Shown here in pieces: positions 2,504-51,582 of a stretch of 64,000 nucleotides of DNA. The notes beneath the pieces are model-generated. The model did no database searches and was not told where the DNA came from. It worked only from the letters and a program-made list of their open reading frames with translations. The position numbers were made by a program, and so were the translations under genes. Each line of letters starts with the position of its first letter. The stretch's first letter is position 1. The DNA comes from Patescibacteria group bacterium (lineage in GTDB: Bacteria; Patescibacteriota; Patescibacteriia; UBA10025). The stretch lies in NCBI GenBank assembly GCA_042570925.1, contig JBHPFX010000001.1:52397-116396 (forward strand). The letters run 5' to 3'.

Positions 2504-3345
2504 ATAAATTTATCTATCCATTGTTATTAGTAATTGTCGTTGGTGCTTTAGCGTTTGTTTTTATTTTTAACAAAGACGTGGAGCCGTCTTCTATAAATGC
2601 GCCTGTTTCTGCAGTTCATATTGATGCATGGAATGTAACTCCAAAAGGCGGAGTAAATCTCGGCGGGTACGGCAGTTTTGATCCGGACGGAGGTGACATC
2701 GTATCGTATGAATGGAAGATTATCAACACTCCACCAGCCCAAACATCTCGTAAAGGGGAAATTGTGTATTCCGGAAGCACATTTCCGGAAGTGAATATCC
2801 CCATGACCAACCAAGATGTAGGAACATGGACTTTTGAATTCACTCTAATAGACGGTGACGGGGAGAAAAACCAACAGAAGGTACAAGTGTTTGTAAGGGA
2901 AGAAATTTCTGCTTTAACGTCGGTTTCATTATCACAAGCTTCAGATGCCGTCGATATTGTCGATTCCGAGATTATCGCCGGCCTTATTGTAAATAACGAA
3001 GCTGCTGCATTTCCACGAAGTGTAATGGATGAACATGCAATCGCTAATATCGTAGTAGGTGGAGAGCCCGTGGTTCTGGTGTTATGTGAATTTTGCCAGA
3101 CGGGAGTTGCGTATTATCGTGTTGTCGAACAGCAGCAACTTACTTTTAATGGTTTTGGCGGGACGCTTATTGAAGATAATTATCAGGCACAAGATGCAGA
3201 AACCTTATCCACGTGGTCAATCGTATCCGGTGAAGCCGTCGAGGGGCAGCTTACTGGCACGAAATTATCATCTTTTTCCGTCAATATGATGACGTGGGAA
3301 GAGTGGCGAACTCTTCACCCCGAATCACTTATATTACTGAAATAA
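2494..3345 (+). CDS. secreted/membrane-anchored hypothetical protein (possible PKD-like N-domain and DUF3179-like C-domain)
   Basis: 283 aa with an N-terminal TM or signal segment. It overlaps the ccdA stop by 10 nt, so it is probably in the same operon. The family assignment is tentative. Confidence 0.5.
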   Translation: MVMNKFIYPLLLVIVVGALAFVFIFNKDVEPSSINAPVSAVHIDAWNVTPKGGVNLGGYGSFDPDGGDIVSYEWKIINTPPAQTSRKGEIVYSGSTFPEVNIPMTNQDVGTWTFEFTLIDGDGEKNQQKVQVFVREEISALTSVSLSQASDAVDIVDSEIIAGLIVNNEAAAFPRSVMDEHAIANIVVGGEPVVLVLCEFCQTGVAYYRVVEQQQLTFNGFGGTLIEDNYQAQDAETLSTWSIVSGEAVEGQLTGTKLSSFSVNMMTWEEWRTLHPESLILLK

Positions 3346-3403
3346 ATTTGCAGGGCGGCTCATTGTCATCAATGACATTTTGCCGTATACTGATCATTCA
3401 ACT

Positions 3404-4384
3404 ATGAATAGTATTATCGAAGTAAAAAATCTATCAAAGAGCTTTGGTGACATCAAAGCAGTCAATGATGTTTCATTTTCCGTACATCAGGGGGAGGTCT
3501 TTGGATTTCTTGGTCCAAATGGCGCAGGCAAGACAACGACCATTAACATGCTCATTACACTGTTAAAACCGACAGGCGGGAATGCGCAGGTCAATGGCTT
3601 TGATTCGCAAAAAGATCAAGATAAAGTTCGTGCGTCTATCGGGGTAATTTTTCAAGACCCATCACTTGATGATAAATTAACTGCAAGAGAAAATTTAAAA
3701 TTTCATTCACTTCTCTATAATCTTTCTGGAGAAAAAATGAACCAGCGCATCGCAGAAATGCTTGAAATGGTTGATCTGCAAAAACGAAAAGGTGATTTGG
3801 TAGAGACGTTTTCTGGTGGGATGAAAAGACGACTGGAGATTGCACGGGGCCTTCTACACCATCCAAAGGTTTTGTTTTTAGACGAACCAACCATTGGATT
3901 GGATCCTCAAACACGTGCTCATATTTGGGATTACATTCTAAATCTCCGCAAAAGAGAGGATATAACGATGTTTATGACTACCCATTACATGGATGAGGCG
4001 GAACACTGTGATCGCATCGCCATAATGGATCGCGGAAAAATCATTGCTCTTGATACACCGGCAAATCTTAAAAAGGCCGTCGGTGGAGATGTTATTACGC
4101 TCAAGACGGACAACAATACTGCCGCGGAAAAAGATATTGAAGAAAAATTTAATCTGGATGTCCAGATAAAAGACGGCGAATTAGTTTTTACAAAAGAAAA
4201 AGGAGATGAGTTCATCCCGGAATTGTTCAAACGAATATCGGTGGGAGTGCAGAGTATTAGCGTTCATAAACCCACGCTCAACGACGTATTTCTCAAGCTT
4301 ACTGGCCGTGAGATTCGCGACGAAGGTGCTTCGAATCTCGATAAGGCAAGAAAGCAATTTAGAATGAGGGGAGGGGGGCACTAA
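3404..4384 (+). CDS. ABC transporter ATP-binding protein (ABC-2 type)
   Basis: Walker A (GPNGAGKTT), ABC signature (LSGGMKRRLEIA), Walker B (LFLDEPT) and H-loop are all present. An alternative upstream start exists at 3380. Confidence 0.85.
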   Translation: MNSIIEVKNLSKSFGDIKAVNDVSFSVHQGEVFGFLGPNGAGKTTTINMLITLLKPTGGNAQVNGFDSQKDQDKVRASIGVIFQDPSLDDKLTARENLKFHSLLYNLSGEKMNQRIAEMLEMVDLQKRKGDLVETFSGGMKRRLEIARGLLHHPKVLFLDEPTIGLDPQTRAHIWDYILNLRKREDITMFMTTHYMDEAEHCDRIAIMDRGKIIALDTPANLKKAVGGDVITLKTDNNTAAEKDIEEKFNLDVQIKDGELVFTKEKGDEFIPELFKRISVGVQSISVHKPTLNDVFLKLTGREIRDEGASNLDKARKQFRMRGGGH

Positions 4385-4385
4385 T

Positions 4386-5198
4386 ATGTTCACCAAGCTG
4401 GCTAAAGAAACATACGTTATTTGGCTGAGGGAGATTATCCGTTACTGGCGGGTAAAAACCCGGCTTGTTGGTTCGCTCGCAATGCCCTTACTCTGGCTGG
4501 TTCTATTCGGTTCGGGAATGAAATCCACGCTTTCGCTCGGAGGCGGTGCGGACTTTGATTTCATTCAATTTCTTTTTCCCGGAGTTATTGGCATGACTAT
4601 TTTGTTTAACTCGATCTTTTCAGTCATGTCGATCGTTCTTGACCGCCAGTTCGGATTTTTAAAAGAAGTATTAGCGGCGCCGGTTTCTCGTGTCTCCATT
4701 GCGTTTGGCAAGATTTTAGGCGGATCAACTATTTCAATGATTCAGGGGACTGTGATGCTGCTTCTGGCTCCGTTGCTCGGTATTAAGCTGTCTATTGGCA
4801 TGATTCTTGCGCTATTGCCGATGATGTTTTTTGCCGCATTTGCGCTTACATCAATCGGCTTGGTAGTAGCTGCACGCATGAAATCAACGGAAGGATTCCA
4901 AATGGTGATGAACTTCATTATGATGCCGATGTTTTTCCTGTCCGGAGCAGTGTTTCCTCTGACGAATCTGCCGGGGTGGATGGACGTGCTGGCAAAGATT
5001 AATCCTGCTTCATACGCGATAGATCTTATTCGACAGGTTGCATTTCGGTTCATGGATACGCCGGCATTTGTTTTAGACAATCTAAGCTTGGAGTTATTTG
5101 GACAAAAAGTCAGCATTCTTACGGATGTTGGAATCGTAGTCGTTTTTGGGATTATTATGATGTCTATTGGCGTCGTACTTTTTCGTAAAAGCGATTAA
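4386..5198 (+). CDS. ABC-2 family transporter permease
   Basis: 270 aa with six predicted TM helices. It is immediately downstream of the ATPase. Confidence 0.8.
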   Translation: MFTKLAKETYVIWLREIIRYWRVKTRLVGSLAMPLLWLVLFGSGMKSTLSLGGGADFDFIQFLFPGVIGMTILFNSIFSVMSIVLDRQFGFLKEVLAAPVSRVSIAFGKILGGSTISMIQGTVMLLLAPLLGIKLSIGMILALLPMMFFAAFALTSIGLVVAARMKSTEGFQMVMNFIMMPMFFLSGAVFPLTNLPGWMDVLAKINPASYAIDLIRQVAFRFMDTPAFVLDNLSLELFGQKVSILTDVGIVVVFGIIMMSIGVVLFRKSD

Positions 5199-5292: not shown

Positions 5293-5901
5293 ATGTCAGA
5301 ATATACAACACCACCGTTGTCCTACTCCTACGACGCATTGGAGCCGTATATCGATAAGGAGACAATGCAGATTCACCATGATAAGCATCATGCCGCATAT
5401 ACAAAGAAATTGAATGCAGCATTGGTTGGTCATGAGAAGCTGTTTGATAAAACTGCCGAAGAGCTGTTAATGGACTTGAGTGCCATTCCTGAAGAAATAC
5501 GAACAGCCGTTCAAAACAACGGGGGTGGGCACGTAAATCATTCGCTGTTTTGGGATATCATGGGTCCTGACGCTGGCGGAAAACCCGAGGGCGAATTGCT
5601 CGGTGCAATCGAGAAAGCTTTCGGAGACTTTGAAAAGTTTACTAAACTGTTTGAAGAAGCCGCTACAACGCAATTTGGATCCGGATGGGCATGGCTGTCT
5701 GTTGATAATGGAAAGTTGGTTATCGAAAAAACATCGAATCAGGACACACCGTTATCTGAAGGTCGTACACCAATTCTTGCATTAGATGTTTGGGAGCATG
5801 CATATTATCTTAAGTATCAGAATCTTCGCCCAGATTACATTAAGGCATTCTGGAATGTTGTGAACTGGAAGAATGTGGCGAAACGTTTCAACGAAAAATA
5901 G
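5293..5901 (+). CDS. sodA: Fe/Mn superoxide dismutase
   Basis: [13 protein letters not shown]-type N-terminus, HHDKHHAAY metal ligands and DVWEHAYY C-terminal ligands. The internal start at 5293 matches canonical SOD length. Confidence 0.9.
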
Positions 5902-5914
5902 CTCTATGATGAAA

Positions 5915-5946
5915 AAGCGCCCGCCAATATGGCGGGCGCTTTTCTG
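5915..5946. terminator. bidirectional rho-independent terminator (GC hairpin gcgcccgcc/ggcgggcgc + T-run)
   Basis: A perfect 9-bp GC stem is followed by TTTTCT. It lies between convergent sodA and the protease gene. Confidence 0.7.
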
Positions 5947-5958
5947 TTACAAATATTT

Positions 5959-6753
5959 TTACGGAAGTACAGGCGTAAAGAAATCTGCCGGATCTAGATT
6001 TTCATTTTCAAGCCATGTAATTACCCAATCAACTCCAACTGCATAATTATTTTCTCCGTATTTCCCCCCTTCATCCCAAACTGGTGTTCCGATAAACTCA
6101 CCGGCGCTGTTAAATATCGCTCCTCCCGAGGTTCCTTCATCAATAACAACGGGGAGTTCTAAGAGGCTTCCCGAAGGTCCAGTAAAAGTAGAGTCAGTCA
6201 CAGCCAGCGGAGTATTCTCATACGTGGGAAATCCGGCAATAGAAAGTGCGTCATTTGCCATTAAGGTGCCTGAGGTACCTACCTTGCTGATTGTGGGGAA
6301 TGTTGTAGGAAGTAATGTATCAGCGTCAACGATTTGCAGAATCGCTACATCAAGGCTTGAATTGGATAGGTATACCTCTTCGCCGAATTGATCTATCGCA
6401 GTGACAACCTCAGCATAGTAGGTGAGTTCAGGGAATTCTGAAACATTATCAATTATACCCACGTTACAATAGAATTCATTCGTTTCATTGACTATATGGT
6501 CATTTGTAAGAAAATACCCATCAGTGTGTATGAGCGCCCCAGAGCCAAAATATACCCATTCATCATCGTCATCCAGCGGACATTCTACATATACAATCGC
6601 ATTTGCGTCGTTGCCGATCGATGATGTAGTTGTGCTAGTGGAGGATGTATTCGTTGAAACATCGGTATCTTCGGAAGTGTTATAAAATGCGAAATACCAG
6701 ACCGCTACCGCGGCGATGATTACGATAAATATAATTATTCCCGGCTTGTTCAT
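5959..6753 (-). CDS. membrane-anchored trypsin-like (S1 family) serine protease
   Basis: N-terminal TM segment and a Ser/Thr-rich linker. The His (LTNDHIV), Asp (DVAILQI) and Ser (GTSGGAIF) of a chymotrypsin-fold catalytic triad are present. Confidence 0.7.
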   Translation of the reverse strand: MNKPGIIIFIVIIAAVAVWYFAFYNTSEDTDVSTNTSSTSTTTSSIGNDANAIVYVECPLDDDDEWVYFGSGALIHTDGYFLTNDHIVNETNEFYCNVGIIDNVSEFPELTYYAEVVTAIDQFGEEVYLSNSSLDVAILQIVDADTLLPTTFPTISKVGTSGTLMANDALSIAGFPTYENTPLAVTDSTFTGPSGSLLELPVVIDEGTSGGAIFNSAGEFIGTPVWDEGGKYGENNYAVGVDWVITWLENENLDPADFFTPVLP

Positions 6754-6902
6754 AGTATTAAGGGTTAAATATTTAGTAATTTGCGTCTAAATATAGTATA
6801 TCAACGAACAGCAACGGATTCAAATGATGCCCCAAAATCACCATTTACGATACGCACGATTACTGGCATACTGTTAGTATAATCATTCAAATATGTAATC
6901 AT

Positions 6903-9311
6903 ATGGATGCAGCAAGAAATGCCCAATTAGATAAGTTTATTAAGGAAAGAAAAAAACTTGGCTATAGTAATAAGAGGATCGTTGAAGAGTTGAGTTCGGC
7001 AGGATGGAAAAGGGACGAAATCAAGGAACATATTTCTGATATCGAATATCGTCCATCAGGGCCTTCTTCGAAGATTGCGCCAAATTATTCTGTTGTTACT
7101 ACCTACATTCTTGTTATTCTGATGCTTATTGCAGGTGTTGGGGGAGTATGGTGGGTGGTTCAAGATGTAGCCGGTTTTCCATGGGGAAACAGCAATACAA
7201 ACAGCTCGGGATATACATCTCCGCTTTTTTCGACGCTTTCAGAACAACTGGCAGCACAGTCTTCACTTAAGAAATTTAACAACTACGAAGAAATTAACGA
7301 CTACTTGGAACGGACCGTAGGCCTTGATTATTACGATTCGTATTCGGGATTTGAAATGCAGCGATCAATATCAGTAGATGAAATGGCTCTTCCAATGGCC
7401 GAATTTGATTTGGGGGTCTCGGATCTTAGTTATGGGGGAGTGACTGATTATTCAACAACCAATATTCAGGTCGAAGGAGTAGATGAAGCAGATATCATTA
7501 AAACAGATGGGGAGAATGTGTATGTAGTTTCCAAAGAGAATGTATTTATCATTGATGCATATCCAGCTGGTAATGCAAAAATATTATCAACTATAGCGCT
7601 TCAATCAACCCCGCAGGATATTTACATCAACGGCGATTTTCTGGTGATATATGGGCATGATGATGATATTTACTCACGGCCAGTATTCGACGACTTACCC
7701 CATACAAGTACCAATTACACGTATCTTAAGGTATTTAACATCAAAGATCGCAGCAACCCTAAACAAGTACGAGATCTAGATTTCGAGGGTACATTTGCCA
7801 ACTCACGGATGATTGGGGACTATGTGTATTTTGTCACTTCACAGTATGCATATGTCTATGATGACGCCCCTCTTCCTTTGACGATTGAGGATGACGAATT
7901 GTTACCGACTGATCCCGGTGTTTCTGGCTGTCTATGTCCCGACGTATACTATATTGATGTCCCGTATTATGATTACTCGTTCACCACGGTCACAGCGATC
8001 AATATCCGTGACAACGACGAGGATATCTCCAGCGAAGTCTATCTTCTGGATAACAGTGAAAACATGTATGTCTCGCAGGAAAATATTTACCTCGTATACA
8101 CGAAATACGTAAGTGATATTCAGTTGTCGTTTGAAGTGATGAAAGAAATGGTATTTAGTGATTTAAGCGCTAAGAACCAGCAGCGTATCATTGACATCGA
8201 GGCTGCACCTTCTCATGTTCTTTCGGAAGGAGAAAAGATTTCAAAAGTATACTCGATCGTTTCGCGCTATATAGAGTCGCTTTCTTCTGATGAGCAGGAT
8301 GAGTTTCAAGAATCGCTCGAAGATAGAATGATGAAGAAGTACGACGATATTTCGAAAGAGCTGGAAAAAACTGTTATCCATAAAATTTCCATTGACAAAG
8401 GTGATCTGGAGTATGAGGGAAGCGGAGAAGTTACCGGTCATGTTCTTAATCAATTCTCTATGGATGAGCGAGACGGATATTTCAGAATTGCCACTACAAA
8501 AGGCCGGACGTGGTCCAGTTTTTCTTTCGGTGGCTCATCTACGGAATCATACAGCAACGTGTATGTACTCGATGGTGATTTAGATGTTGTCGGGAAAGTT
8601 GAAAATCTTGCCAAAGATGAAGAAATCTATTCAGCACGGTTTATGCAGGGACGGGTGTACCTGGTTACCTTTAGACAGACTGATCCGCTTTTTGCGATTG
8701 ATCTGACGAATCCAAAAAATCCTAAAGTACTTGGAGAGCTGAAAGTACCCGGTTTTTCATCGTACCTCCATCCGTATGATGACAACTATCTTATCGGAAT
8801 GGGGAAGCAGGCCGATGATAATGGAATTATTACCAGTTTGAAGGTGTCGCTTTTTGATGTTTCTGATGTAGAGAATATGAAAGAAGTTGATACGTATGAA
8901 ATGGGCGGTCGATGGAGCGATTCTCTTGCACTGGATGATCATAAGGCATTTCTTTTCTCAAAGAATAAAAACCTGTTAGTAATCCCGGTGACTCTTCGAA
9001 AAGAGACAGCAACGAACAGTTATGGTGACGTGGAGACAAACGGCGCGATGGTATTTACCATTACGAAGGACGGATTTGAACTAAAAGGCCGTATAGATCA
9101 CTCTGATGGTAGCTCTGATGACAACCTTCTTGATTATGATTCTTATTACAGTTATTACGAGACTTCCGTGAAAAGAAGTATGTACATAGAGGACGTATTG
9201 TACACACTCTCAAATAAGTATCTTATGATGAATGCGCTGGGTGATCTCGAGGAAATAAAAACGATTACGCTGACGCCGGGTGAGGGGGACGACTTTACGA
9301 TTATTCGCTAA
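6903..9311 (+). CDS. membrane-anchored beta-propeller domain protein (PF09826-like)
   Basis: 802 aa with a cytoplasmic N-terminus, one TM segment and a large extracytoplasmic beta-propeller region (…RFMQGRVYLVTFRQTDPLFAIDLTNPKNPKVLGELKVPGFSSYLHPYDDNYLIGMG…). Confidence 0.6.
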   Translation: MDAARNAQLDKFIKERKKLGYSNKRIVEELSSAGWKRDEIKEHISDIEYRPSGPSSKIAPNYSVVTTYILVILMLIAGVGGVWWVVQDVAGFPWGNSNTNSSGYTSPLFSTLSEQLAAQSSLKKFNNYEEINDYLERTVGLDYYDSYSGFEMQRSISVDEMALPMAEFDLGVSDLSYGGVTDYSTTNIQVEGVDEADIIKTDGENVYVVSKENVFIIDAYPAGNAKILSTIALQSTPQDIYINGDFLVIYGHDDDIYSRPVFDDLPHTSTNYTYLKVFNIKDRSNPKQVRDLDFEGTFANSRMIGDYVYFVTSQYAYVYDDAPLPLTIEDDELLPTDPGVSGCLCPDVYYIDVPYYDYSFTTVTAINIRDNDEDISSEVYLLDNSENMYVSQENIYLVYTKYVSDIQLSFEVMKEMVFSDLSAKNQQRIIDIEAAPSHVLSEGEKISKVYSIVSRYIESLSSDEQDEFQESLEDRMMKKYDDISKELEKTVIHKISIDKGDLEYEGSGEVTGHVLNQFSMDERDGYFRIATTKGRTWSSFSFGGSSTESYSNVYVLDGDLDVVGKVENLAKDEEIYSARFMQGRVYLVTFRQTDPLFAIDLTNPKNPKVLGELKVPGFSSYLHPYDDNYLIGMGKQADDNGIITSLKVSLFDVSDVENMKEVDTYEMGGRWSDSLALDDHKAFLFSKNKNLLVIPVTLRKETATNSYGDVETNGAMVFTITKDGFELKGRIDHSDGSSDDNLLDYDSYYSYYETSVKRSMYIEDVLYTLSNKYLMMNALGDLEEIKTITLTPGEGDDFTIIR

Positions 9312-10810: not shown

Positions 10811-10826
10811 GAATAATTAGTAATAG

Positions 10827-10856
10827 AAAACCGCCCGCTCAATGCGGGCGGTTTTA
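10827..10856 (+). terminator. rho-independent terminator
   Basis: The sequence aaaaccgcccgc-tcaat-gcgggcggtttt forms a perfect hairpin followed by a T-run. Confidence 0.75.
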
Positions 10857-10899
10857 TACTTTGCACTACTCATTAAGGAAGATGTTTCTCTTTTCGGTA

Positions 10900-11016
10900 C
10901 CTTCTTTCTGTGACTAGAAAGAAGCAAAGAGTCCTAGGGTTTCCAATTCGCGAGTGTTTATCGTGCTTATTCATCTAGAAAAGGCCCAATAAAAACTCCG
11001 GACCCCAAGTCTAGGA
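10900..11016 (+). repeat. intergenic repeat family, copy A (core CTTCTTTCTGTGACNAGAAAGAAGCAAAGAGTCC…GGTTTCCAATTCGCG…CCGGACCCCA…CTAGG)
   Basis: It shares about 50 nt of near-identical 5' core and a conserved 3' box with copies at 18631 and 41124. A 10-bp hairpin TTCTTTCTG/CAGAAAGAA lies at its 5' end. Confidence 0.7.
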
Positions 11017-11154
11017 GAATTTTGAGATCAATCCATAAACAGTGCTCCTCCCTCGTTTTATTTAATACTCGTATACAATAAATAATTAATATGTTACATT
11101 ATTCTTATAAAATCGTTCACCCAGAGGTGAAAATACAACAGCAGGGGTGCAGCC

Positions 11155-11340
11155 ATGCAGAGACATACCTTAGCTCATCTTTTGGCAGTAGCTCAGGAAA
11201 GGGGTTTTCGGATGGATCGGACTTCACTCCCTGGCACCGCAGAAATGTGGGATCAGGACTGGGAACAAATGTTCCCCCCTGGGACACAGCCCGGGTGTGA
11301 TGTTGAGAAGGCTTCACTACGAAGGCCTCCCCCATACTAA
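11155..11340 (+). CDS. small GC-rich ORF (61 aa), hypothetical
   Basis: The ATG is preceded by an AGGGGTG SD-like sequence and a hairpin terminator follows at 11361–11395. It lies in a GC-rich island, so it could instead be part of a structured RNA. Confidence 0.25.
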   Translation: MQRHTLAHLLAVAQERGFRMDRTSLPGTAEMWDQDWEQMFPPGTQPGCDVEKASLRRPPPY

Positions 11341-11360
11341 CGAATCTATTGTCAAAGAAC

Positions 11361-11395
11361 GGGGAGATGCGATGCGCGTCTCCCCTTGTTTCCTT
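11361..11395 (+). terminator. hairpin terminator (GGGGAGATGC-loop-GCGTCTCCCC + TTGTTTCC)
   Basis: 10-bp stem followed by a T-rich tract. Confidence 0.55.
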
Positions 11396-11485
11396 ATTCA
11401 AACATGGTTGACATGACGATTTCATTAGGATAAGATTCTATAAATTTAGGAAAAACAGTTCTTATCTCTTTTCACGGGAGGTGCT

Positions 11486-11683
11486 ATGAGCACGCCAAAT
11501 GATAGTGACGCAGTTAAGTTGCGTCAAGTCGGCAGAGTGATGGGAACGGGGGAATCTCCTGGAACAACGATCATGGTATGTTCAGGTTCACCCCCAGGAG
11601 ACCTTTTTGGGGGATGTCCTGTAGGATGGAGCGCCAGTTCCGGCTCTATCCCAAAAGCAACTGACGGTGATAGTCAGGAGTAA
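11486..11683 (+). CDS. small GC-rich ORF (65 aa), hypothetical
   Basis: A GGGAGG SD lies 5 nt upstream of the ATG. It is followed at 11718–11755 by a hairpin that is paralogous to the one at 11361. Confidence 0.25.
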   Translation: MSTPNDSDAVKLRQVGRVMGTGESPGTTIMVCSGSPPGDLFGGCPVGWSASSGSIPKATDGDSQE

Positions 11684-11717
11684 GTCCGTTCATCGAACGG
11701 CGACGAGAACTCACAAA

Positions 11718-11755
11718 GGGAGACGCACTGCACGACGCGTCTCCCTGATTTCTTA
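11718..11755. terminator. hairpin terminator (GGGAGACGC-loop-GCGTCTCCC), probably bidirectional
   Basis: 9-bp GC stem, then TGATTTCTT on the + strand. The stop of the minus-strand gene sits at 11753. Confidence 0.55.
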
Positions 11756-18630: not shown

Positions 18631-18747
18631 CCTTCTTTCTGTGACCAGAAAGAAGCAAAGAGTCCCGGGGTTTCCAATTCGCGGATATTCATCACTCTTT
18701 AATGATCTAGGATTGGCTCAATGGAAACGCCCGGACCCCACCTCTAG
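18631..18747 (+). repeat. intergenic repeat family, copy B
   Basis: CCTTCTTTCTGTGACCAGAAAGAAGCAAAGAGTCCCGGGGTTTCCAATTCGCGG…GGCTCAATGGAAAC…CCGGACCCCACCTCTAG. It lies upstream of ispH, and a TATAAT box follows at about 18766. Confidence 0.7.
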
Positions 18748-18802
18748 TAATGGAATGTGGTGCTAGACTATAATTACATTGGTTGGTACAATATTTTAGC
18801 TT

Positions 18803-33852: not shown

Positions 33853-33927
33853 CGCGGGGTGGAGCAGTAGCAGCTCGCCGGGCTCATAATCCGGAGGTCG
33901 AGGGTGCAAATCCCTCCCCCGCAACCA
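33853..33927 (+). tRNA. initiator tRNA-fMet (CAU)
   Basis: CGCGGGGTGGAGCAG…GGGCTCATAATCC…CCCCGCAACCA is near-identical in design to E. coli tRNA-fMet. The 1:72 pair is a C·A mismatch, the anticodon is CAU, and the CCA end is encoded. Confidence 0.9.
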
Positions 33928-33950
33928 AGCGTTTACAACTCACGTTTCAT

Positions 33951-34027
33951 GGCAGGGTAGCTCAGCTGGTTAGAGCGTGGGACTCATAAGCCCAAGGTCG
34001 TGGGTTCGAACCCCACCCCTGCTACCA
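33951..34027 (+). tRNA. tRNA-Met or tRNA-Ile2 (anticodon CAU)
   Basis: 77 nt cloverleaf GGCAGGGTAGCTCAGCTGGTTAGAGC…CTCATAA…GGTTCGAACCCCACCCCTGCTACCA with an encoded CCA. Confidence 0.85.
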
Positions 34028-34081
34028 AGCAAATAATCTTTTCAAACCTATAACCTAGTATTTAGTAAAAGGGCTTTTTTG

Positions 34082-34158
34082 TGTAGTGGGGGTCGAAGGG
34101 CGCGAGCGAGCGTGGCGCCCCGGTCCGCAGGGGAACCCCACCCCTGCTACCAAGCAAT
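34082..34158 (+). other. tRNA-derived fragment: duplicate of the 3' 25 nt of the CAU tRNA forming an acceptor-stem minihelix (GCAGGGG-AACCCCA-CCCCTGC-TACCA) preceded by a GC hairpin
   Basis: GAACCCCACCCCTGCTACCAAGCAA is exactly repeated about 105 nt downstream of the tRNA. The upstream part is not a cloverleaf. Confidence 0.6.
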
Positions 34159-34281
34159 ACTAATAAGACCCGAAAGTAAAAACGGGTTTTGTTTTGGTTT
34201 GTTTAAATATTGGTGCTGGGAGAGAGAATCCCCGCTTCATTTCGCTTCACTCAATTACGCGGGGCAGGCGAACTCTCTTCT

Positions 34282-34365
34282 GGATAAAATGCCGGAGGTG
34301 GGAGTTGAACCCACATGATCTTGCGATCACAGGATTTTGAGTCCTGCGTGTCTGCCAATTCCACC
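34282..34365 (-). tRNA. tRNA-Leu (CAA)
   Basis: The reverse strand reads GCCGGAGTGGTGGAATTGGCAGAC…GGACTCAAAATCC…long variable arm…GGGTTCAACTCCCACCTCCGGCA. It is a class II tRNA with anticodon CAA and no encoded CCA. Confidence 0.9.
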
Positions 34366-34385
34366 ACTCCGGCAAGATGATTATT

Positions 34386-41123: not shown

Positions 41124-41270
41124 TCTTCTTTCTGTGACCAGAAAGAAGCAAAGAGTCCCGGGGTTTCCAATTCGCGGGTATTTATCATGCTTGATATATC
41201 TAGGAGTGGCTCAATGGAAACCCTCCTCGAGCCCGAGACTCGGAGCCGAGGGCCGGACCCCACCTCTAGG
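41124..41270 (+). repeat. intergenic repeat family, copy C (with internal GC hairpin insertion)
   Basis: TTCTTCTTTCTGTGACCAGAAAGAAGCAAAGAGTCCCGGGGTTTCCAATTCGCGGG…GGCTCAATGGAAACC…[CTCCTCGAGCCCGAGACTCGGAGCCGAGGG]…CCGGACCCCACCTCTAGG. Confidence 0.7.
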
Positions 41271-41635
41271 AGGATTTTATTGAGTGAACTTTTCACGCTG
41301 CTTCACTCAGGATTTAACAGAGCGCCGTGCAGAATATTTAATAAAACTTGACCATATTAGTTGTGGATAAGGGGTCTTTGTAATTGACAAACATTCAAAT
41401 TAATGTCAGAATAATTCCATTATTGCACCTTCGCACTTTCAACAATGCATACTGAACTAAACAGTTCGATCACTAGATCCTTACCGCAACAATAACCGGA
41501 ATTGGGAAAAGCCATGCCAGCATGGCAGAAAGGAGGGTTAGAGTTCTAGAGTAGAGCTTTTTGCATTACCGTAGTACGGTAGGGATCAAGTGAATTCACT
41601 CGAGTGAAACGCTGTTTCAAACGGAGGGTATTACC

Positions 41636-42778
41636 TTGAAGAGGTCAAACCGATTCATTTTACCCGTGATCCTTCTGGTCACAGCCGTTATGACGTTCGG
41701 GACGATGAGCCTGACGTATGCGACGACGACCAAGGACGCGATGAAGATCGAGGTCAACCAAAACGGACCTCCGGTGTCATTCTGTAACGTGCAACACAAT
41801 CCGGCGATCACCGACAACACGACCGCAGTGACGTGCACCGCAAACACAGCCCCGGCCATCGACGAGAAAAAGACGGCCACGTTTGCGACCTGCACGGAAG
41901 GTACGATTGAGCTATCAGCTCCTCCTACTCCCGGCCTGGACGCGACCCGCGCCAGCCCCGACAACTTCTGCCTGGCCAAAGTCGACAATGCCGTGGAGAG
42001 CAATATCGAAGTCTATGACGCGACCGAATACTCCGTGACGAACCGTGCCGGCCCTACGACGACCGCCGAGTGTTCGACCATGGAGAGCAATACCGAAGTC
42101 TACGATGAGACGCCCGTCACCGCCGCGATGAACCGCGCTGGCCCGACAGCAAACTGTGCTGAGAACGTGGCTGAGTGTTCGACCGTGGCGACCGGCGCCC
42201 CTGCCAACCTGGCGACGACTGATTATCCGAACCCCGCGATGAACGGTTCGAGGCAGACGACTGATTATCCGAACCCCGCGATGAACGGTTCGAGGCATAT
42301 GACGGTCATGAAGGTTGACGAGGGCGCGAATCAATCACGTGCTGTTACTGCGACCGCTGACTCGTGGGACGGCACCGATATGTGGACAGTTGAGAAGACC
42401 TGGACGGCGATTGCTGACGAAAATGCGACGCGGACCAACATGAAGGCAGGGCTACCGAACGAACTTGTCGTCGAGCTGACGAGTGGTATCCTGGCCGCCA
42501 ATTCTCGGATGAAAACGACGATCCGTGCGACGGATGTCTCGAAGGCGATGGCGAATGCCGGTGGAATTCAAGACGACGGCGCGATGTGCTGCGGTGCACA
42601 GACCGCCGGTACCAACGTGGAAGATGGCTGGAAACTGACGACGGAAATCGCGGCCGACGCGGCTATGAATACCGTCGTGGAAGAAACAAATCGGGCACAG
42701 AAGCCGGTGATGACGATTACGGACGACGCCAGCTACGCCTATCCGAATCCGTTCAACGCCGGGACGATCGCGGCCTAA
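41636..42778 (+). CDS. GC-rich secreted Thr/Ala/Asn-rich protein with tandem TTDYPNPAMNGSR repeats (probable horizontally acquired)
   Basis: TTG start and a signal peptide (FILPVILLVTAVMTFGTMSLTYA). There are 380 codons with a strong GC3 bias, unlike its neighbours. Overlapping shadow ORFs occur in every frame. It ends …AYPNPFNAGTIAA. Confidence 0.6.
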   Translation: MKRSNRFILPVILLVTAVMTFGTMSLTYATTTKDAMKIEVNQNGPPVSFCNVQHNPAITDNTTAVTCTANTAPAIDEKKTATFATCTEGTIELSAPPTPGLDATRASPDNFCLAKVDNAVESNIEVYDATEYSVTNRAGPTTTAECSTMESNTEVYDETPVTAAMNRAGPTANCAENVAECSTVATGAPANLATTDYPNPAMNGSRQTTDYPNPAMNGSRHMTVMKVDEGANQSRAVTATADSWDGTDMWTVEKTWTAIADENATRTNMKAGLPNELVVELTSGILAANSRMKTTIRATDVSKAMANAGGIQDDGAMCCGAQTAGTNVEDGWKLTTEIAADAAMNTVVEETNRAQKPVMTITDDASYAYPNPFNAGTIAA

Positions 42779-42834
42779 AGTCATTCAAGGCGAATGGCGC
42801 GATCTACAACTGGATTAGTTCTGCATTGAATTTG

Positions 42835-42876
42835 CTCCCCCGCACACATTGTGCTGTGCGGGGGATTGTTTTTTTA
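42835..42876 (+). terminator. rho-independent terminator
   Basis: CCCCCGCACAC-attgtgctg-TGCGGGGG followed by ATTGTTTTTTTAT. Confidence 0.8.
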
Positions 42877-42881
42877 TTCCT

Positions 42882-42990
42882 ACCATCCTGAGGAGTCGAA
42901 CGGAGTGAGACAACGAAGGATCACTTAGTTACCGTAAAACAGGGGGATCCTTCGTCACCATGACTAAAGGCATGGACTCCTCAGGATGGT
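42882..42990. repeat. 109-bp palindromic element with 16-bp perfect terminal inverted repeats (ACCATCCTGAGGAGTC / GACTCCTCAGGATGGT) and a nested 9-bp IR
   Basis: The terminal IRs are read directly. The inner IR is CGAAGGATC/GATCCTTCG. The element lies between a terminator and the next promoter. Confidence 0.6.
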
Positions 42991-43013
42991 TTGTTATTTA
43001 TTAAGCCAATAGG

Positions 43014-43042
43014 CTTGACAGGGACGAGATGTCATGCTAACA
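43014..43042 (+). promoter_or_regulatory. sigma70-like promoter TTGACA-N17-TAACAT
   Basis: It has a consensus -35 box with 17-bp spacing to a good -10 box. It sits about 180 nt upstream of the 43225 gene. Confidence 0.45.
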
Positions 43043-43224
43043 TGTTCGGTCAAATGATCTTTGCCAACTATAAAGGCCTTTTCGCCATTTTACTGTCCTT
43101 ATTGAACAGGGACTATCACACAAATACACCTGAAGGAGGCAGGTTTATATTCGATGTGAAAGTGAATGTGCAGAAGGGTCATTCTGACCACTCATAACTA
43201 GATGAAGAACAGGAGAACTACCGG

Positions 43225-43737
43225 ATGAAGACGAAGATTTGCATTTTTGCGGCCATTGCCGCGTTCTTATGCACCTTTGTGATCTCCAGTCCGGCCATCG
43301 CCGAGACCCACGACGGGTACTCGATCTGGACACTCGATGACCAGGCCGTACCGCCAGCGGATGTCACGGTGAAACAGTTCACCGCAAACTCGACGACTCC
43401 GGCGGCCAGCAATTCTCCGCCGGCCGCGTCCCATTTCGTTTCTTATTTCACTTTGATACAGACGAACCCGGCCGCGTTCGAGTCACCGTACACTTCGATC
43501 ACCTCTCTGAACCGTTCAGGTCCGCCGGCATCCGCGTGCGCGAACTGTGGAACCGATATCAGCGTGCCACGGCCAGCCGACGCCAACCTGTTCAACGGCT
43601 TCTGGCAACCCGACTCCGACGTCCGGGATCAGGCAGAGGTCGACACTTCGACATGCTCAGTGTCGGCCTGTAACACCCGTCGCTATGACGACATTAATGT
43701 GATCCCGATCTCCGGCCCGACCGGCGCCGCGGCCTAA
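43225..43737 (+). CDS. GC-rich secreted Ala/Thr/Pro/Ser-rich protein (probable horizontally acquired)
   Basis: Signal peptide (ICIFAAIAAFLCTFVISSPAIA), 170 aa, GC-rich codons, C-terminus …ISGPTGAAA. Confidence 0.55.
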   Translation: MKTKICIFAAIAAFLCTFVISSPAIAETHDGYSIWTLDDQAVPPADVTVKQFTANSTTPAASNSPPAASHFVSYFTLIQTNPAAFESPYTSITSLNRSGPPASACANCGTDISVPRPADANLFNGFWQPDSDVRDQAEVDTSTCSVSACNTRRYDDINVIPISGPTGAAA

Positions 43738-43756
43738 CGACGGCCGACGCCCAAAA

Positions 43757-43797
43757 CCCCCGAGCACTCTTTGAGTGCCCGGGGGTCGATTTTTATT
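43757..43797. terminator. bidirectional hairpin terminator
   Basis: CCCCCGAGCACTC-ttt-GAGTGCCCGGGGG + TCGATTTTTATTT. The topA stop lies on the other strand at 43809. Confidence 0.7.
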
Positions 43798-43808
43798 TAC
43801 ACCAATTG

Positions 43809-50781: not shown

Positions 50782-50868
50782 AAATGAAAAATATCAGCAC
50801 TTGTTAACTGTCTATCTGTATAATAGCGCATTTATTGGCTTTTGGCAAGAGCTGGGCACGGTAGGGTC

Positions 50869-50897
50869 TTGACAGTCATTTTATCTTATGATAAGAT
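50869..50897 (+). promoter_or_regulatory. sigma70-like promoter TTGACA-N17-TAAGAT
   Basis: It is read directly from the sequence and heads a GC-rich structured leader. Confidence 0.4.
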
Positions 50898-51296
50898 GCT
50901 CCATTCACTAGAAAATTGACACTTCGGCGATCCCTCGTTAACTCGGGATGCTCAGTGTCAACCCGCCATAGCCTTGGCGGAAGTGAGGTTGACAATCTAC
51001 CCGTGCAGAACGCTGCTCGCAAGTGAGTGTGATAGTTCATCCCTCCTAGAACTCTCACATTCATAAAAGTTAAGGTGTTGTGAGTTTTCTCACCTCACTT
51101 TATACTTGTGAGTGGCGTCATGACCGGGTAGCAAAACAGATAAGAGGATCCCTCGGCAAGCTTTCCTCGGCATCAAGCCTCGGGACTGAAGGCAGGGTCT
51201 TCCAAAGACGGTTGGACGGTAGCAATGTTAATGTTCAGCCGTCTTTGTCAATACAAAAACAGCATATTCACGTGTGTCCTGAATGGGAGGGGTGCA

Positions 51297-51515
51297 ATGA
51301 GTGCAACGGCAATGAACGACGTCATTGCATTAATGACGAAGGTTCGTGCAGGTATGGATCCTTTGACGCATGTCGCCTGCGCAGGCGGAAGTGTTCAGAG
51401 TGCCATGGGACAACCGACGGGTGATAAAGGGCAAATCTTGAGTGCGGCGGATATCGCCAGGGAACTCGCAGCCCTTCTTCGTGGATTTGCCGACGAAGCC
51501 GACCAGATCACCTAA
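51297..51515 (+). CDS. small GC-rich ORF (72 aa, Ala/Gly-rich), hypothetical
   Basis: A GGGAGGGG SD lies 6 nt upstream of the ATG, and a strong terminator follows immediately after the stop. The composition is unlike the host genome. Confidence 0.4.
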   Translation: MSATAMNDVIALMTKVRAGMDPLTHVACAGGSVQSAMGQPTGDKGQILSAADIARELAALLRGFADEADQIT

Positions 51516-51536
51516 GCAGGACATCGGTACACCATT

Positions 51537-51582
51537 TACCCCGACCAGTGCTAGTCACGATTGGTCGGGGTGTTTTTTTTAT
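51537..51582 (+). terminator. rho-independent terminator
   Basis: CCCCGACCAGTG-ctagtcacgat-TGGTCGGGG followed by TGTTTTTTTTAT. Confidence 0.8.

Follow-up and report, generated by a model that had tools for sequence, protein, structure and literature searches.

A GC-rich gene for a surface protein that is actively maintained in an AT-rich genome has its closest precedent in the vls system of Borrelia, whose cassettes have 49% G+C against 28.6% for the genome and a GC skew of 0.52, and whose high G+C is kept across strains despite sequence divergence, from which its authors infer strong selection on composition (PMC11499132). Here we describe a locus that shares this compositional trait in another phylum: the gap between trxB and topA in a 64-kb stretch of DNA from a Kerfeldbacteria-like Patescibacterium (contig JBHPFX010000001.1; the whole analysed stretch is called the window), which holds two open reading frames (ORFs) for predicted exported proteins, ORF1 (41636-42778, + strand) and ORF2 (43225-43737, + strand). 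Anomalies in GC content and codon usage are routinely taken as proof of recent horizontal transfer, and an earlier sequence-only reading of the window had placed these genes in a probably foreign island. We consider it probable, at roughly 70%, that the gap is a vertically inherited, clade-specific and rapidly diversifying locus for secreted or surface proteins, in which a high GC content at third codon positions (GC3) is maintained; a 12-sigma GC3 outlier would here belong to an old syntenic family.

The likeness to vls lies in surface-protein DNA with a GC content far above that of an AT-rich genome, in the conservation of that composition and in the alternation of conserved and variable segments. 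The trxB-topA locus differs in that its GC skew is not pronounced, G-runs are absent, relatives do not vary within strains and its sequence is not homologous to vls; it is accompanied by no silent cassette array in 64 kb, and it is chromosomal, lying between housekeeping genes. It is therefore not a member of that system. Genomic islands share with it the atypical GC content and codon usage, the orphan genes and the variable gap between conserved genes, but the present locus is syntenic over the clade, carries native regulatory DNA, has no integrase, tRNA or direct repeats, and is stationary in composition, not ameliorating. O-antigen and capsule clusters occupy fixed chromosomal sites between conserved flanks, encode biosynthetic enzymes and are usually AT-rich. 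They resemble the gap in their fixed position, long-kept atypical composition, lineage diversity and likely role at the cell surface, whereas a locus of the window type encodes one to three small secreted proteins and is GC-rich.

The compositional anomaly is strong and is confined to the two coding sequences. Mean GC of the window is ~42%, with peaks of 58-62% at ~41.70-42.80 kb and 43.25-43.80 kb, and the coding DNA of ORF1 and ORF2 has 59% GC. GC at first, second and third codon positions (GC1/GC2/GC3) is 0.52/0.52/0.72 in ORF1 and 0.50/0.56/0.73 in ORF2, compared with a GC3 of 0.383 +/- 0.028 (maximum 0.49) in the window's remaining 38 long ORFs, which gives z-scores of 11.8 and 12.1, respectively. 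An index akin to the codon adaptation index, built on the window's own genes, likewise sets both ORFs apart from the other genes of the window (z = -6.3 for ORF1, -6.8 for ORF2): they favour ACG/ACC, GCG/GCC, CCG, CTG, GAC, AAC and AAG, whereas the genome favours A/T-ending codons. The sequence-only reading was right that the coding GC exceeds that of the neighbours and that the region is full of shadow ORFs, which we found, 84-139 aa long, both in alternative frames and on the opposite strand. Its picture of a GC-rich island of ~2.5 kb did not hold: the leader of ORF1 (41.29-41.63 kb) and the spacer between ORF1 and ORF2 (42.80-43.22 kb, ~450 bp) have 37-47% GC, like the genome, and there is no continuous 2.5-kb GC-rich block. 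GC skew ranges from -0.17 to +0.17 over ORF1 and is about -0.1 to -0.2 in ORF2. High GC3 as a trait of exported proteins in general was considered and rejected, as GC3 is normal in the Beta_propel, NAGPA and LytR_cpsA_psr proteins of the window, whose family names make an extracytoplasmic location likely.

Relatives of the two genes were found at the same chromosomal position and nowhere else in the collections searched. Searched against 5.8 billion proteins, ORF1 matched only itself and P0002 (341 aa; 40% BLASTP identity, 47% in the alignment), and ORF2 returned a self-match only; a profile of ORF1 and P0002 run against 1.84 billion representatives gave back only its two inputs. P0002 lies directly after trxB on the Logan contig L001, which has the gene order parA-parB-Wzy_C/TPR-relA-trxB and DNA 84% identical to window 34.5-41.1 kb. 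With TrxB as a handle we gathered five further lineages beyond L001, with 72-75% RelA+TrxB identity to the window and Candidatus Kerfeldbacteria RIFCSPLOWO2_01_FULL among them; across the clade carrying the locus this identity falls to 69-77%. The order parA-parB-Wzy_C/TPR-relA-trxB-[gap]-topA-dprA-mfd is common to the window, L001, L002, L024-26, L027, L028 and L029, and within it the content of the gap varies from 0 to 4 genes. Where the window has ORF1 and ORF2, L002 has genes for 262, 257 and 176 aa (the middle one an unrelated ORF with a GC3 of 0.59 and no PHROGs match), L027 has four (240, 157, 242 and 221 aa), L024, L025 and L026 have a single gene for 188 aa, L029 and L030 encode one exported protein of a different kind, and L028 has no gene in its 332 bp. 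This empty gap (L028 10937-11267) contains a TTGACA...TAGCAT promoter-like site followed, after ~200 nt, by a strong terminator hairpin, which might be the remnant of a deleted locus or a small RNA gene.

The gap genes share an architecture. The first gap gene of L002, L027 and L024 has the build of ORF1, with a signal peptide ending in A-x-A|T and a Thr/Cys-rich body, and gap genes of L001, L002, L024 and L027 have the N-terminal module ATT..D..K.EA..(S)PP, of which (S/G/V)PP, ~15 residues into the mature chain, is a family mark. In the same four lineages the first gap gene has a C-terminal YPNPF, which is invariant and in L002, L027 and L024 stands 0-8 residues from the end of the chain. The last gap gene of L002 and of L027 resembles ORF2 through the motifs NR[AS]GP and D[VM]RD[QR]. 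In six-frame translations of the window and nine clade loci, 19/20 matches to YPNP, NR[AS]GP and PN[IV]G[YF] fall in gap genes, the single outside match being on the minus strand of L027, and a TTGACA promoter, a GGAGGG ribosome-binding site (RBS) and an MK start align over five genomes. In a RelA+TrxB tree, carriers of the locus are found to either side of the midpoint root, with the empty L028 nested among them, so that an ancestral locus with one loss would be the simplest history. Three remoter Patescibacteria (TrxB 57-62% identity) have different trxB neighbourhoods, which makes the locus clade-specific. The independent assembly L001 has the same junction between trxB and a GC-rich gene, and since this left junction is common to independent assemblies, an assembly chimera is excluded.

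The composition of the family does not follow that of the genomes in which it resides. Gap-gene GC3 is 0.72 and 0.73 in the window against a background of 0.38, 0.71 in L001 (background 0.36), 0.75 in L024 (0.51), 0.70 and 0.68 in L027 (0.55), and 0.68 and 0.72-0.75 in L002 (0.59); it thus stays at 0.68-0.75 in every genome while backgrounds range over 0.36-0.59, with z from 2 to 12.7. A two-state model of relaxation towards the genomic equilibrium, using the synonymous divergence (dS) of 0.7-1.2 in the genes that flank the gap in the window and L001, predicts that 54-72% of any excess GC3 has been erased since these two split, and a GC3 of 0.72 today would then need an ancestral GC3 > 1; hence the composition of ORF1 is not a fading foreign signature. 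At aligned third positions of ORF1 and P0002, strong-to-weak and weak-to-strong differences (54 and 53, respectively) are symmetric, which argues that both genes are stationary. Something maintains the ~0.7 GC3 of this family. The locus thereby offers a natural case of synonymous composition set against mutation pressure, be it through selection on mRNA, biased gene conversion or a force specific to the locus.

While its composition stands still, the encoded protein changes fast. Between the window and L001 the ratio of non-synonymous to synonymous divergence (dN/dS) is 0.03-0.09 in five flanking genes and 0.59 in ORF1, with similar overall dS, and ORF1 has also changed by indels and duplications relative to P0002. 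The divergence is mosaic. Block A (42131-42234, + strand; encoding NRAGPTANCA..ECST.ATGAPANLATTDYPNP) has 88.6% nucleotide identity to L001 over 114 nt, with exact shared runs of 14-20 nt, and block B (42492-42570, + strand; encoding AANSRMKTTIRATDVSKAMANAGGI) differs from L001 by 2 mismatches in 79 nt; the segments between them are barely alignable. The proportion of synonymous differences (pS) is 0.10-0.15 in the two blocks and 0.46-0.59 in flanking genes, and in block B synonymous differences affect 1/22 degenerate codons for identical residues, compared with 37% in the flanks (binomial P ~5e-4). A second pair, L002 and L027, behaves alike: pS is 0.45 in gene 1, while the flanks are saturated at 0.71-0.88, and codons of identical residues differ in 28% of cases in gene 1 and in 57-71% in the flanks. 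In the alignable parts of the gap proteins, synonymous sites are more conserved than in the housekeeping neighbours, pointing either to a nucleotide sequence that is itself constrained or to exchange that followed speciation. Ongoing hypermutation of the gap genes was rejected, as near-clonal relatives differ by 0-1 SNP (single-nucleotide polymorphism): 1 in the gap gene among L024, L025 and L026 (99.4-99.7% identical) and none between L029 and L030. Silent cassettes or the template of a diversity-generating retroelement (DGR) were likewise rejected: searching the 64-kb window with blastn and tblastn brought up no further copy of either ORF or of a part of it. No paralogous protein from the same assembly was among the protein-database matches.

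How the genes came to this site can now be weighed. According to the sequence-only reading they are cargo recently acquired from a high-GC host or neighbour, plausibly Actinobacteria, a reading to which the extreme GC3, the deviant codon usage and the orphan proteins lend themselves, and which had itself named conserved synteny in related genomes as the finding that speaks against it. Such synteny is what we found: the sister L001 (flanks 84% identical, flank dS ~0.7-1.2) and the deeper relatives L002, L024-26 and L027 all carry the family in the trxB-topA gap, where promoter, RBS and N-terminus are conserved, and also share the promoter, leader or upstream repeat with the window. The reading fails on this count, and the GC-rich coding sequences with their native spacers, as well as the absence of any donor, phage or plasmid match, also speak against a recent import, which we regard as highly improbable. 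The search for a donor covered protein, phage and plasmid databases, where only self-matches and the syntenic P0002 appeared and nothing donor-like; viral contigs, JGI metagenome contigs and phage and plasmid collections held no relatives of ORF1 or ORF2. With no match outside the clade in any collection, there is no candidate donor. Nor did we find an integrase, a tRNA or flanking direct repeats at the region, where the trxB-topA interval contains no ORFs other than ORF1, ORF2 and the shadow ORFs, and the nearest tRNAs are at 33.8-34.4 kb. A much older acquisition, in which a gene from a high-GC donor entered the ancestor of the clade, was domesticated behind a native promoter and had its codon usage kept by selection, would bear on the origin alone and does not otherwise conflict with the explanation that we favour. 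The codon preferences do look like those of a GC-rich genome, the family is absent outside the clade, trxB neighbourhoods differ in remoter Patescibacteria and the number of gap genes varies from 0 to 4. Against this stand the lack of a donor homologue in 5.8 billion + 1.84 billion proteins, the absence of mobility genes or att-like boundaries, the native composition of the non-coding parts and the fact that persistence of GC3 needs a separate force anyway; we hold an ancient acquisition to be unlikely, if still a credible account of the origin.

Other explanations bear on what happens at the locus today. If the locus were recurrently replaced or patched by homologous recombination among lineages, or from an unsampled GC-rich pool, biased conversion could raise GC3 as a by-product. 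The mosaic of near-identical nucleotide blocks and unalignable segments in ORF1 and P0002 agrees with such exchange, as do the variable gene content and a synonymous divergence that, in each of two independent pairs of genomes, is lower in gap genes than in the flanks. On the other side, overall ORF1 dS equals flank dS, gap genes compared within a species differ by 0-1 SNP and are not mosaic, there is none among the clade genomes with a background GC3 close to 0.7 to serve as a source, and the GC3 shift is far above the effects of GC-biased gene conversion generally known in bacteria. Recurrent exchange appears rather unlikely to us, and we would say the same of its anchoring in trxB and topA or in conserved internal blocks. 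A further explanation would have the GC-rich expression site rewritten from a template repeat or from silent copies, either as programmed antigenic variation, like that of vls in Borrelia and pilE/pilS in Neisseria, or as the target of a DGR. It would account for the conserved and variable blocks in ORF1, and a high GC content in an AT-rich genome is a conserved trait of vls (49% vs 28.6%; PMC11499132). Several findings argue otherwise: the window contains no second copy of ORF1 or ORF2 at the DNA or protein level, GC skew is -0.17 to +0.17 and not 0.52 as in vls, closely related strains show no variation, and homologues differ by long indels among other changes, not specifically at adenines. 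A DGR is further disfavoured by the absence of a template repeat for ORF1 or ORF2 in the window and of a reverse transcriptase among the neighbours RelA/SpoT, TrxB, TopA, DprA and Mfd, and programmed variation in either form is very unlikely. A wider version of this idea holds that GC-richness is mechanistically required for recombination-driven diversification, making the locus an analogue of vls in another phylum with unrelated proteins. In that case the nucleotide-ultraconserved blocks 42131-42234 and 42492-42570 would serve as recombination anchors, lineages would swap variable segments with one another or with silent copies left unassembled, and high GC3 would be a prerequisite or, by biased gene conversion, a direct product; we find this doubtful. 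Finally, the region might be non-coding, a GC-rich structured RNA or a chimera of assembly, as GC-rich islands of AT-rich genomes are often structured RNAs and shadow ORFs are many here. The strong codon periodicity (0.52/0.52/0.72), the 380-codon frame that is kept as a 341-codon frame with RBS and signal peptide in L001, the lack of an Rfam match or of excess folding and the junction shared by independent assemblies leave this with a negligible chance.

Returning to the reading that we prefer, in which an ancestral locus has been inherited in place and its GC3 maintained, the following picture would emerge. In Kerfeldbacteria-like Patescibacteria the gap would hold from none to three paralogues encoding acidic, Cys-containing proteins that are Sec-exported and rich in Thr/Ser/Ala, at a locus that, with its promoter, leader and RBS of native composition, predates the radiation of the clade and was lost in one lineage. 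The genes would be transcribed from their own conserved, sigma-70-like predicted promoters and closed by intrinsic terminators, and their products, diverging fast through substitution, indels and tandem duplication, may be cell-surface or secreted components that diversify under pressure from the host or phage interface. Surface exposure to a changing partner would explain both the diversification and the polymorphism in presence and absence. GC3 and the conserved synonymous sites would be held by selection on the nucleotide sequence or on properties of mRNA or codons; alternatively, GC-biased gene conversion arising from recurrent recombination at the locus might hold GC3, which would fit the mosaic blocks and the low synonymous divergence, albeit with an unusually large effect. 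Given how little is known of the cell-surface biology of Kerfeldbacteria-like Patescibacteria, and hence of their attachment to hosts, a diversifying exported family in this clade would be of wider interest.

Several points weigh against this picture. The clade comparison is based on seven lineages in total, and the counterpart of ORF2 in L001 falls beyond the end of the contig. The homology between the window/L001 pair and the deeper gap genes is weak, being carried largely by position and short motifs, with E = 3e-4 (BLASTP), 1.4e-3, 9e-3 and 3.8e-3 (hhalign 1.4e-3, 3.8e-3). Synonymous divergence below that of the flanks could mean post-speciation exchange and not strict vertical descent, and the clade-wide presence of the family is compatible with the ancient transfer into the clade ancestor that we rated as unlikely above. 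As to the force behind GC3, mRNA folding does not exceed that of synonymous-codon shuffles (z = +0.9 and -0.4), which leaves one candidate cause of selection on GC3 unsupported, and the effects of GC-biased gene conversion known to us in bacteria are much smaller than +0.34 in GC3. Structure prediction lends no help either: the predicted local distance difference test (pLDDT) score from AlphaFold2 is 27 for ORF1 (2-sequence alignment) and 35 for ORF2 (single sequence).

That ORF1 and ORF2 are real coding sequences is clear from their three-base periodicity and, for ORF1, from the retention of frame, RBS, start and signal peptide in the homologue from an independent assembly. A structured RNA in place of a protein was ruled out by the codon periodicity, by folding no better than that of the synonymous shuffles and by Rfam, which gave no match within the region at the gathering threshold or at E <= 1. 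ORF1 encodes 380 aa from a TTG start and is Thr/Ala/Asn-rich and acidic, with 9 Cys and the C-terminal ...YAYPNPFNAGTIAA; ORF2 encodes 170 aa and is Ala/Ser/Thr/Pro-rich and acidic, also with Cys. In the NCBI model of ORF1 (ACFL0L_00515, 362 aa) the start lies 18 codons downstream, at an internal Met (window 41636-41689), which is probably too late, losing the beginning of the signal peptide that the TTG at 41636 restores in full. This earlier start is supported by the position of the RBS (GGAGGG at 41623-41628, 7 nt 5' of the TTG) and by alignment with P0002, whose ATG matches the TTG, and with remoter relatives.

Both proteins carry predicted Sec/signal peptidase I signal peptides, as the sequence-only reading had said. 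Each N-terminus combines 2-3 basic residues with a hydrophobic core of 12 residues, and small residues occupy -3/-1, with candidate cleavage sites, judged by eye from the translations, at TYA|TTT (ORF1) and AIA|ETH (ORF2). The call was made by a heuristic N-terminal scan together with an automated -3/-1 rule: among nine family members the scan found n-, h- and c-region features in 9/9 (2-3 K/R, mean Kyte-Doolittle hydropathy 2.2-3.6) and no lipobox Cys, and the rule gave candidate sites such as AMA|TT and VMA|AT. Mature chains have an isoelectric point (pI) of 4.2-4.3 in ORF1 and ORF2, and of 4.1-5.4 over the nine members; those of ORF1 and ORF2 are rich in Thr, Ala, Asn, Ser and Pro and contain 4-9 Cys, against a background of 0.6% Cys. 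Neither protein has a Pfam or NCBIfam domain, so the earlier statement that both are without recognisable domains stands, and PHROGs scans and PDB sequence-profile searches with ORF1, ORF2 and their relatives brought up no relative.

ORF1 contains two internal duplications. An exact tandem duplication at 42214-42297 (+ strand; 2 x 42 nt, 14-aa unit TTDYPNPAMNGSRQ / TTDYPNPAMNGSRH, family D2), which the sequence-only reading had also noticed, has copies that are 100% identical, implying that the slippage or duplication event was recent. An imperfect duplication at 41991-42111 (+ strand; 87-nt period, 29-aa unit ...ESN.EVYD.T...NRAGPT..ECST, 85% identity, family D3) is older than the exact repeat, and its 29-aa unit is single in P0002. 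With motifs such as (S/V)PP and NR[AS]GP common to both, ORF1 and ORF2 look like distant paralogues.

A role as secreted effector or adhesin is plausible for the two products from their predicted features, and they would probably be disulfide-bonded, which fits their Cys content and the two DsbA-like genes 8-10 kb upstream of ORF1. Ala/Pro/Ser/Thr-rich secreted proteins that are O-glycosylated are substrates of PglL/PilO-type or PMT-type transferases. The gap proteins resemble them as low-complexity, Thr/Ser/Ala/Pro-rich exported proteins with genes for a PMT_2 glycosyltransferase and a Wzy_C-like/TPR protein nearby in the window, and O-glycosylation is plausible on these grounds; what sets them apart is that the Wzy_C match of the neighbour is below the Pfam threshold (26.4 vs 31.7 bits) and that this neighbour is kept in L028, where there is no gap gene. 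The invariant C-terminal YPNPF is likely to be a signal for processing, anchoring or recognition. It resembles part of the C-terminal sorting domain of the type IX secretion system (T9SS; type A, TIGR04183 / PF18962), in which YPNPF is a frequent sequence of the first strand; in both cases the motif stands towards the C-terminus of exported proteins. Here, only 0-8 residues follow the motif in place of a domain of ~80 aa, YPNP also occurs internally in ORF1, and ORF1 and the five family members gave no Pfam or NCBIfam match at E <= 1, the sorting-domain profiles included; to our knowledge, Patescibacteria have neither an outer membrane nor a T9SS. This is a resemblance and not membership. A literature search on 'YPNPF' returned nothing relevant, and an exported protein family with this C-terminus in Kerfeldbacteria-like Patescibacteria is previously undescribed.

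The signals around the genes are largely those that had been read from the sequence before, although not all bear the meaning given to them. ORF1 is preceded by a promoter-like site, P1 (41384-41412, + strand; TTGACA-N17-CAGAAT with TG before the -10 element), whose TTGACA and downstream leader align in L001, L002, L027, L024 and the empty gap of L028. The 5' leader itself (41420-41635, + strand, ~215 nt) is AT-rich with normal composition, includes the RBS and local hairpins at 41512-41527, 41567-41581 and 41595-41608, has 70.7% identity to L001 over 297 nt and gave no Rfam match; a conserved RNA structure in it was rejected after RNAalifold returned a weak consensus with a positive covariation term. 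Downstream, ORF1 is closed by an intrinsic terminator (42836-42875, + strand), formed by a hairpin at 42836-42865 with an 11-bp stem of 8 GC pairs and a T run. ORF2 has the promoter-like site P2 (43015-43043, + strand; TTGACA-N17-TAACAT), and between the convergent ORF2 and topA lies a hairpin with a T run (43756-43797; hairpin 43756-43786, with 14-nt arms that are 93% complementary), which is probably a bidirectional terminator. The promoter and terminators proposed earlier are thus in place, as is the 109-bp palindromic element (42882-42990), which has a 16-bp perfect outer stem, a 10-bp inner stem, a minimum free energy of -51 kcal/mol and a fold z of -5.2. It is single-copy in the 64-kb window and shows no sign of mobility there; a half-copy (GGATCCTTCGTC...CTCCTCAGGATGG) stands at L002 10992-11037, directly after trxB and on the other side of gene 1. 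The palindrome could have resided in the trxB-topA gap for a long time, or it could be mobile within it.

The left bracket of the supposed island, repeat copy C (41125-41290, + strand), is present, starting with the hairpin CTTCTTTCTG-TGAC-CAGAAAGAAG and containing a 30-nt hairpin insert, yet it could not be upheld as an island boundary. L001 (~6700-6990) has a copy after trxB at the identical position, including the same insert, so that copy C predates the split of the window and L001 and is not an insertion scar of the island. The repeat family has 3 copies in the window (10901-11060, 18632-18790 and 41125-41290), each directly 3' of a + strand gene, in units of ~150-190 nt with a perfect 10-bp hairpin CTTCTTTCTG-TGAC-CAGAAAGAAG followed by GGGGTTTCC...GGAAACCC and TCTAGGAG motifs. 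It has no Rfam match and could be an element like miniature inverted-repeat transposable elements (MITE) or repetitive extragenic palindromes (REP), or a terminator-associated small RNA. One copy opens a gap of ~940 bp at window 10811-11752 (GC ~0.45-0.51, no Rfam match), in which the ORFs are without codon periodicity, e.g., 11117-11425 on the - strand with GC1/2/3 = 0.52/0.50/0.51; a decayed gene or an RNA not yet recognised could lie here.

Some further observations concern other parts of the window and its relatives. The 800-bp gap between mfd and pth (50782-51578), with GC raised to ~0.46-0.51, contains no ORF with codon periodicity, and at the same position L024 and L028 have a gene for 153-171 aa without Pfam domains. 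At 5861-5974, between convergent genes, sub-threshold matches to Rfam Atu_C9 on both strands (29.6 and 23.8 bits, gathering threshold 40) most likely mark a bidirectional terminator hairpin. In L032, a remoter Patescibacterium, a reverse transcriptase (RVT_1) gene adjoins a bAvd-like gene (3284-4657) ~1.5 kb upstream of trxB, an arrangement that is DGR-like and unrelated to the window locus. Directly upstream of parA-parB, at 33853-34374, the window has a tandem pair of tRNA-Met(CAT) genes with a tRNA-Leu(CAA) gene convergent to them; this cluster, together with a steadily rising cumulative GC skew, suggests that the origin region is near and that the window belongs to a single replichore.

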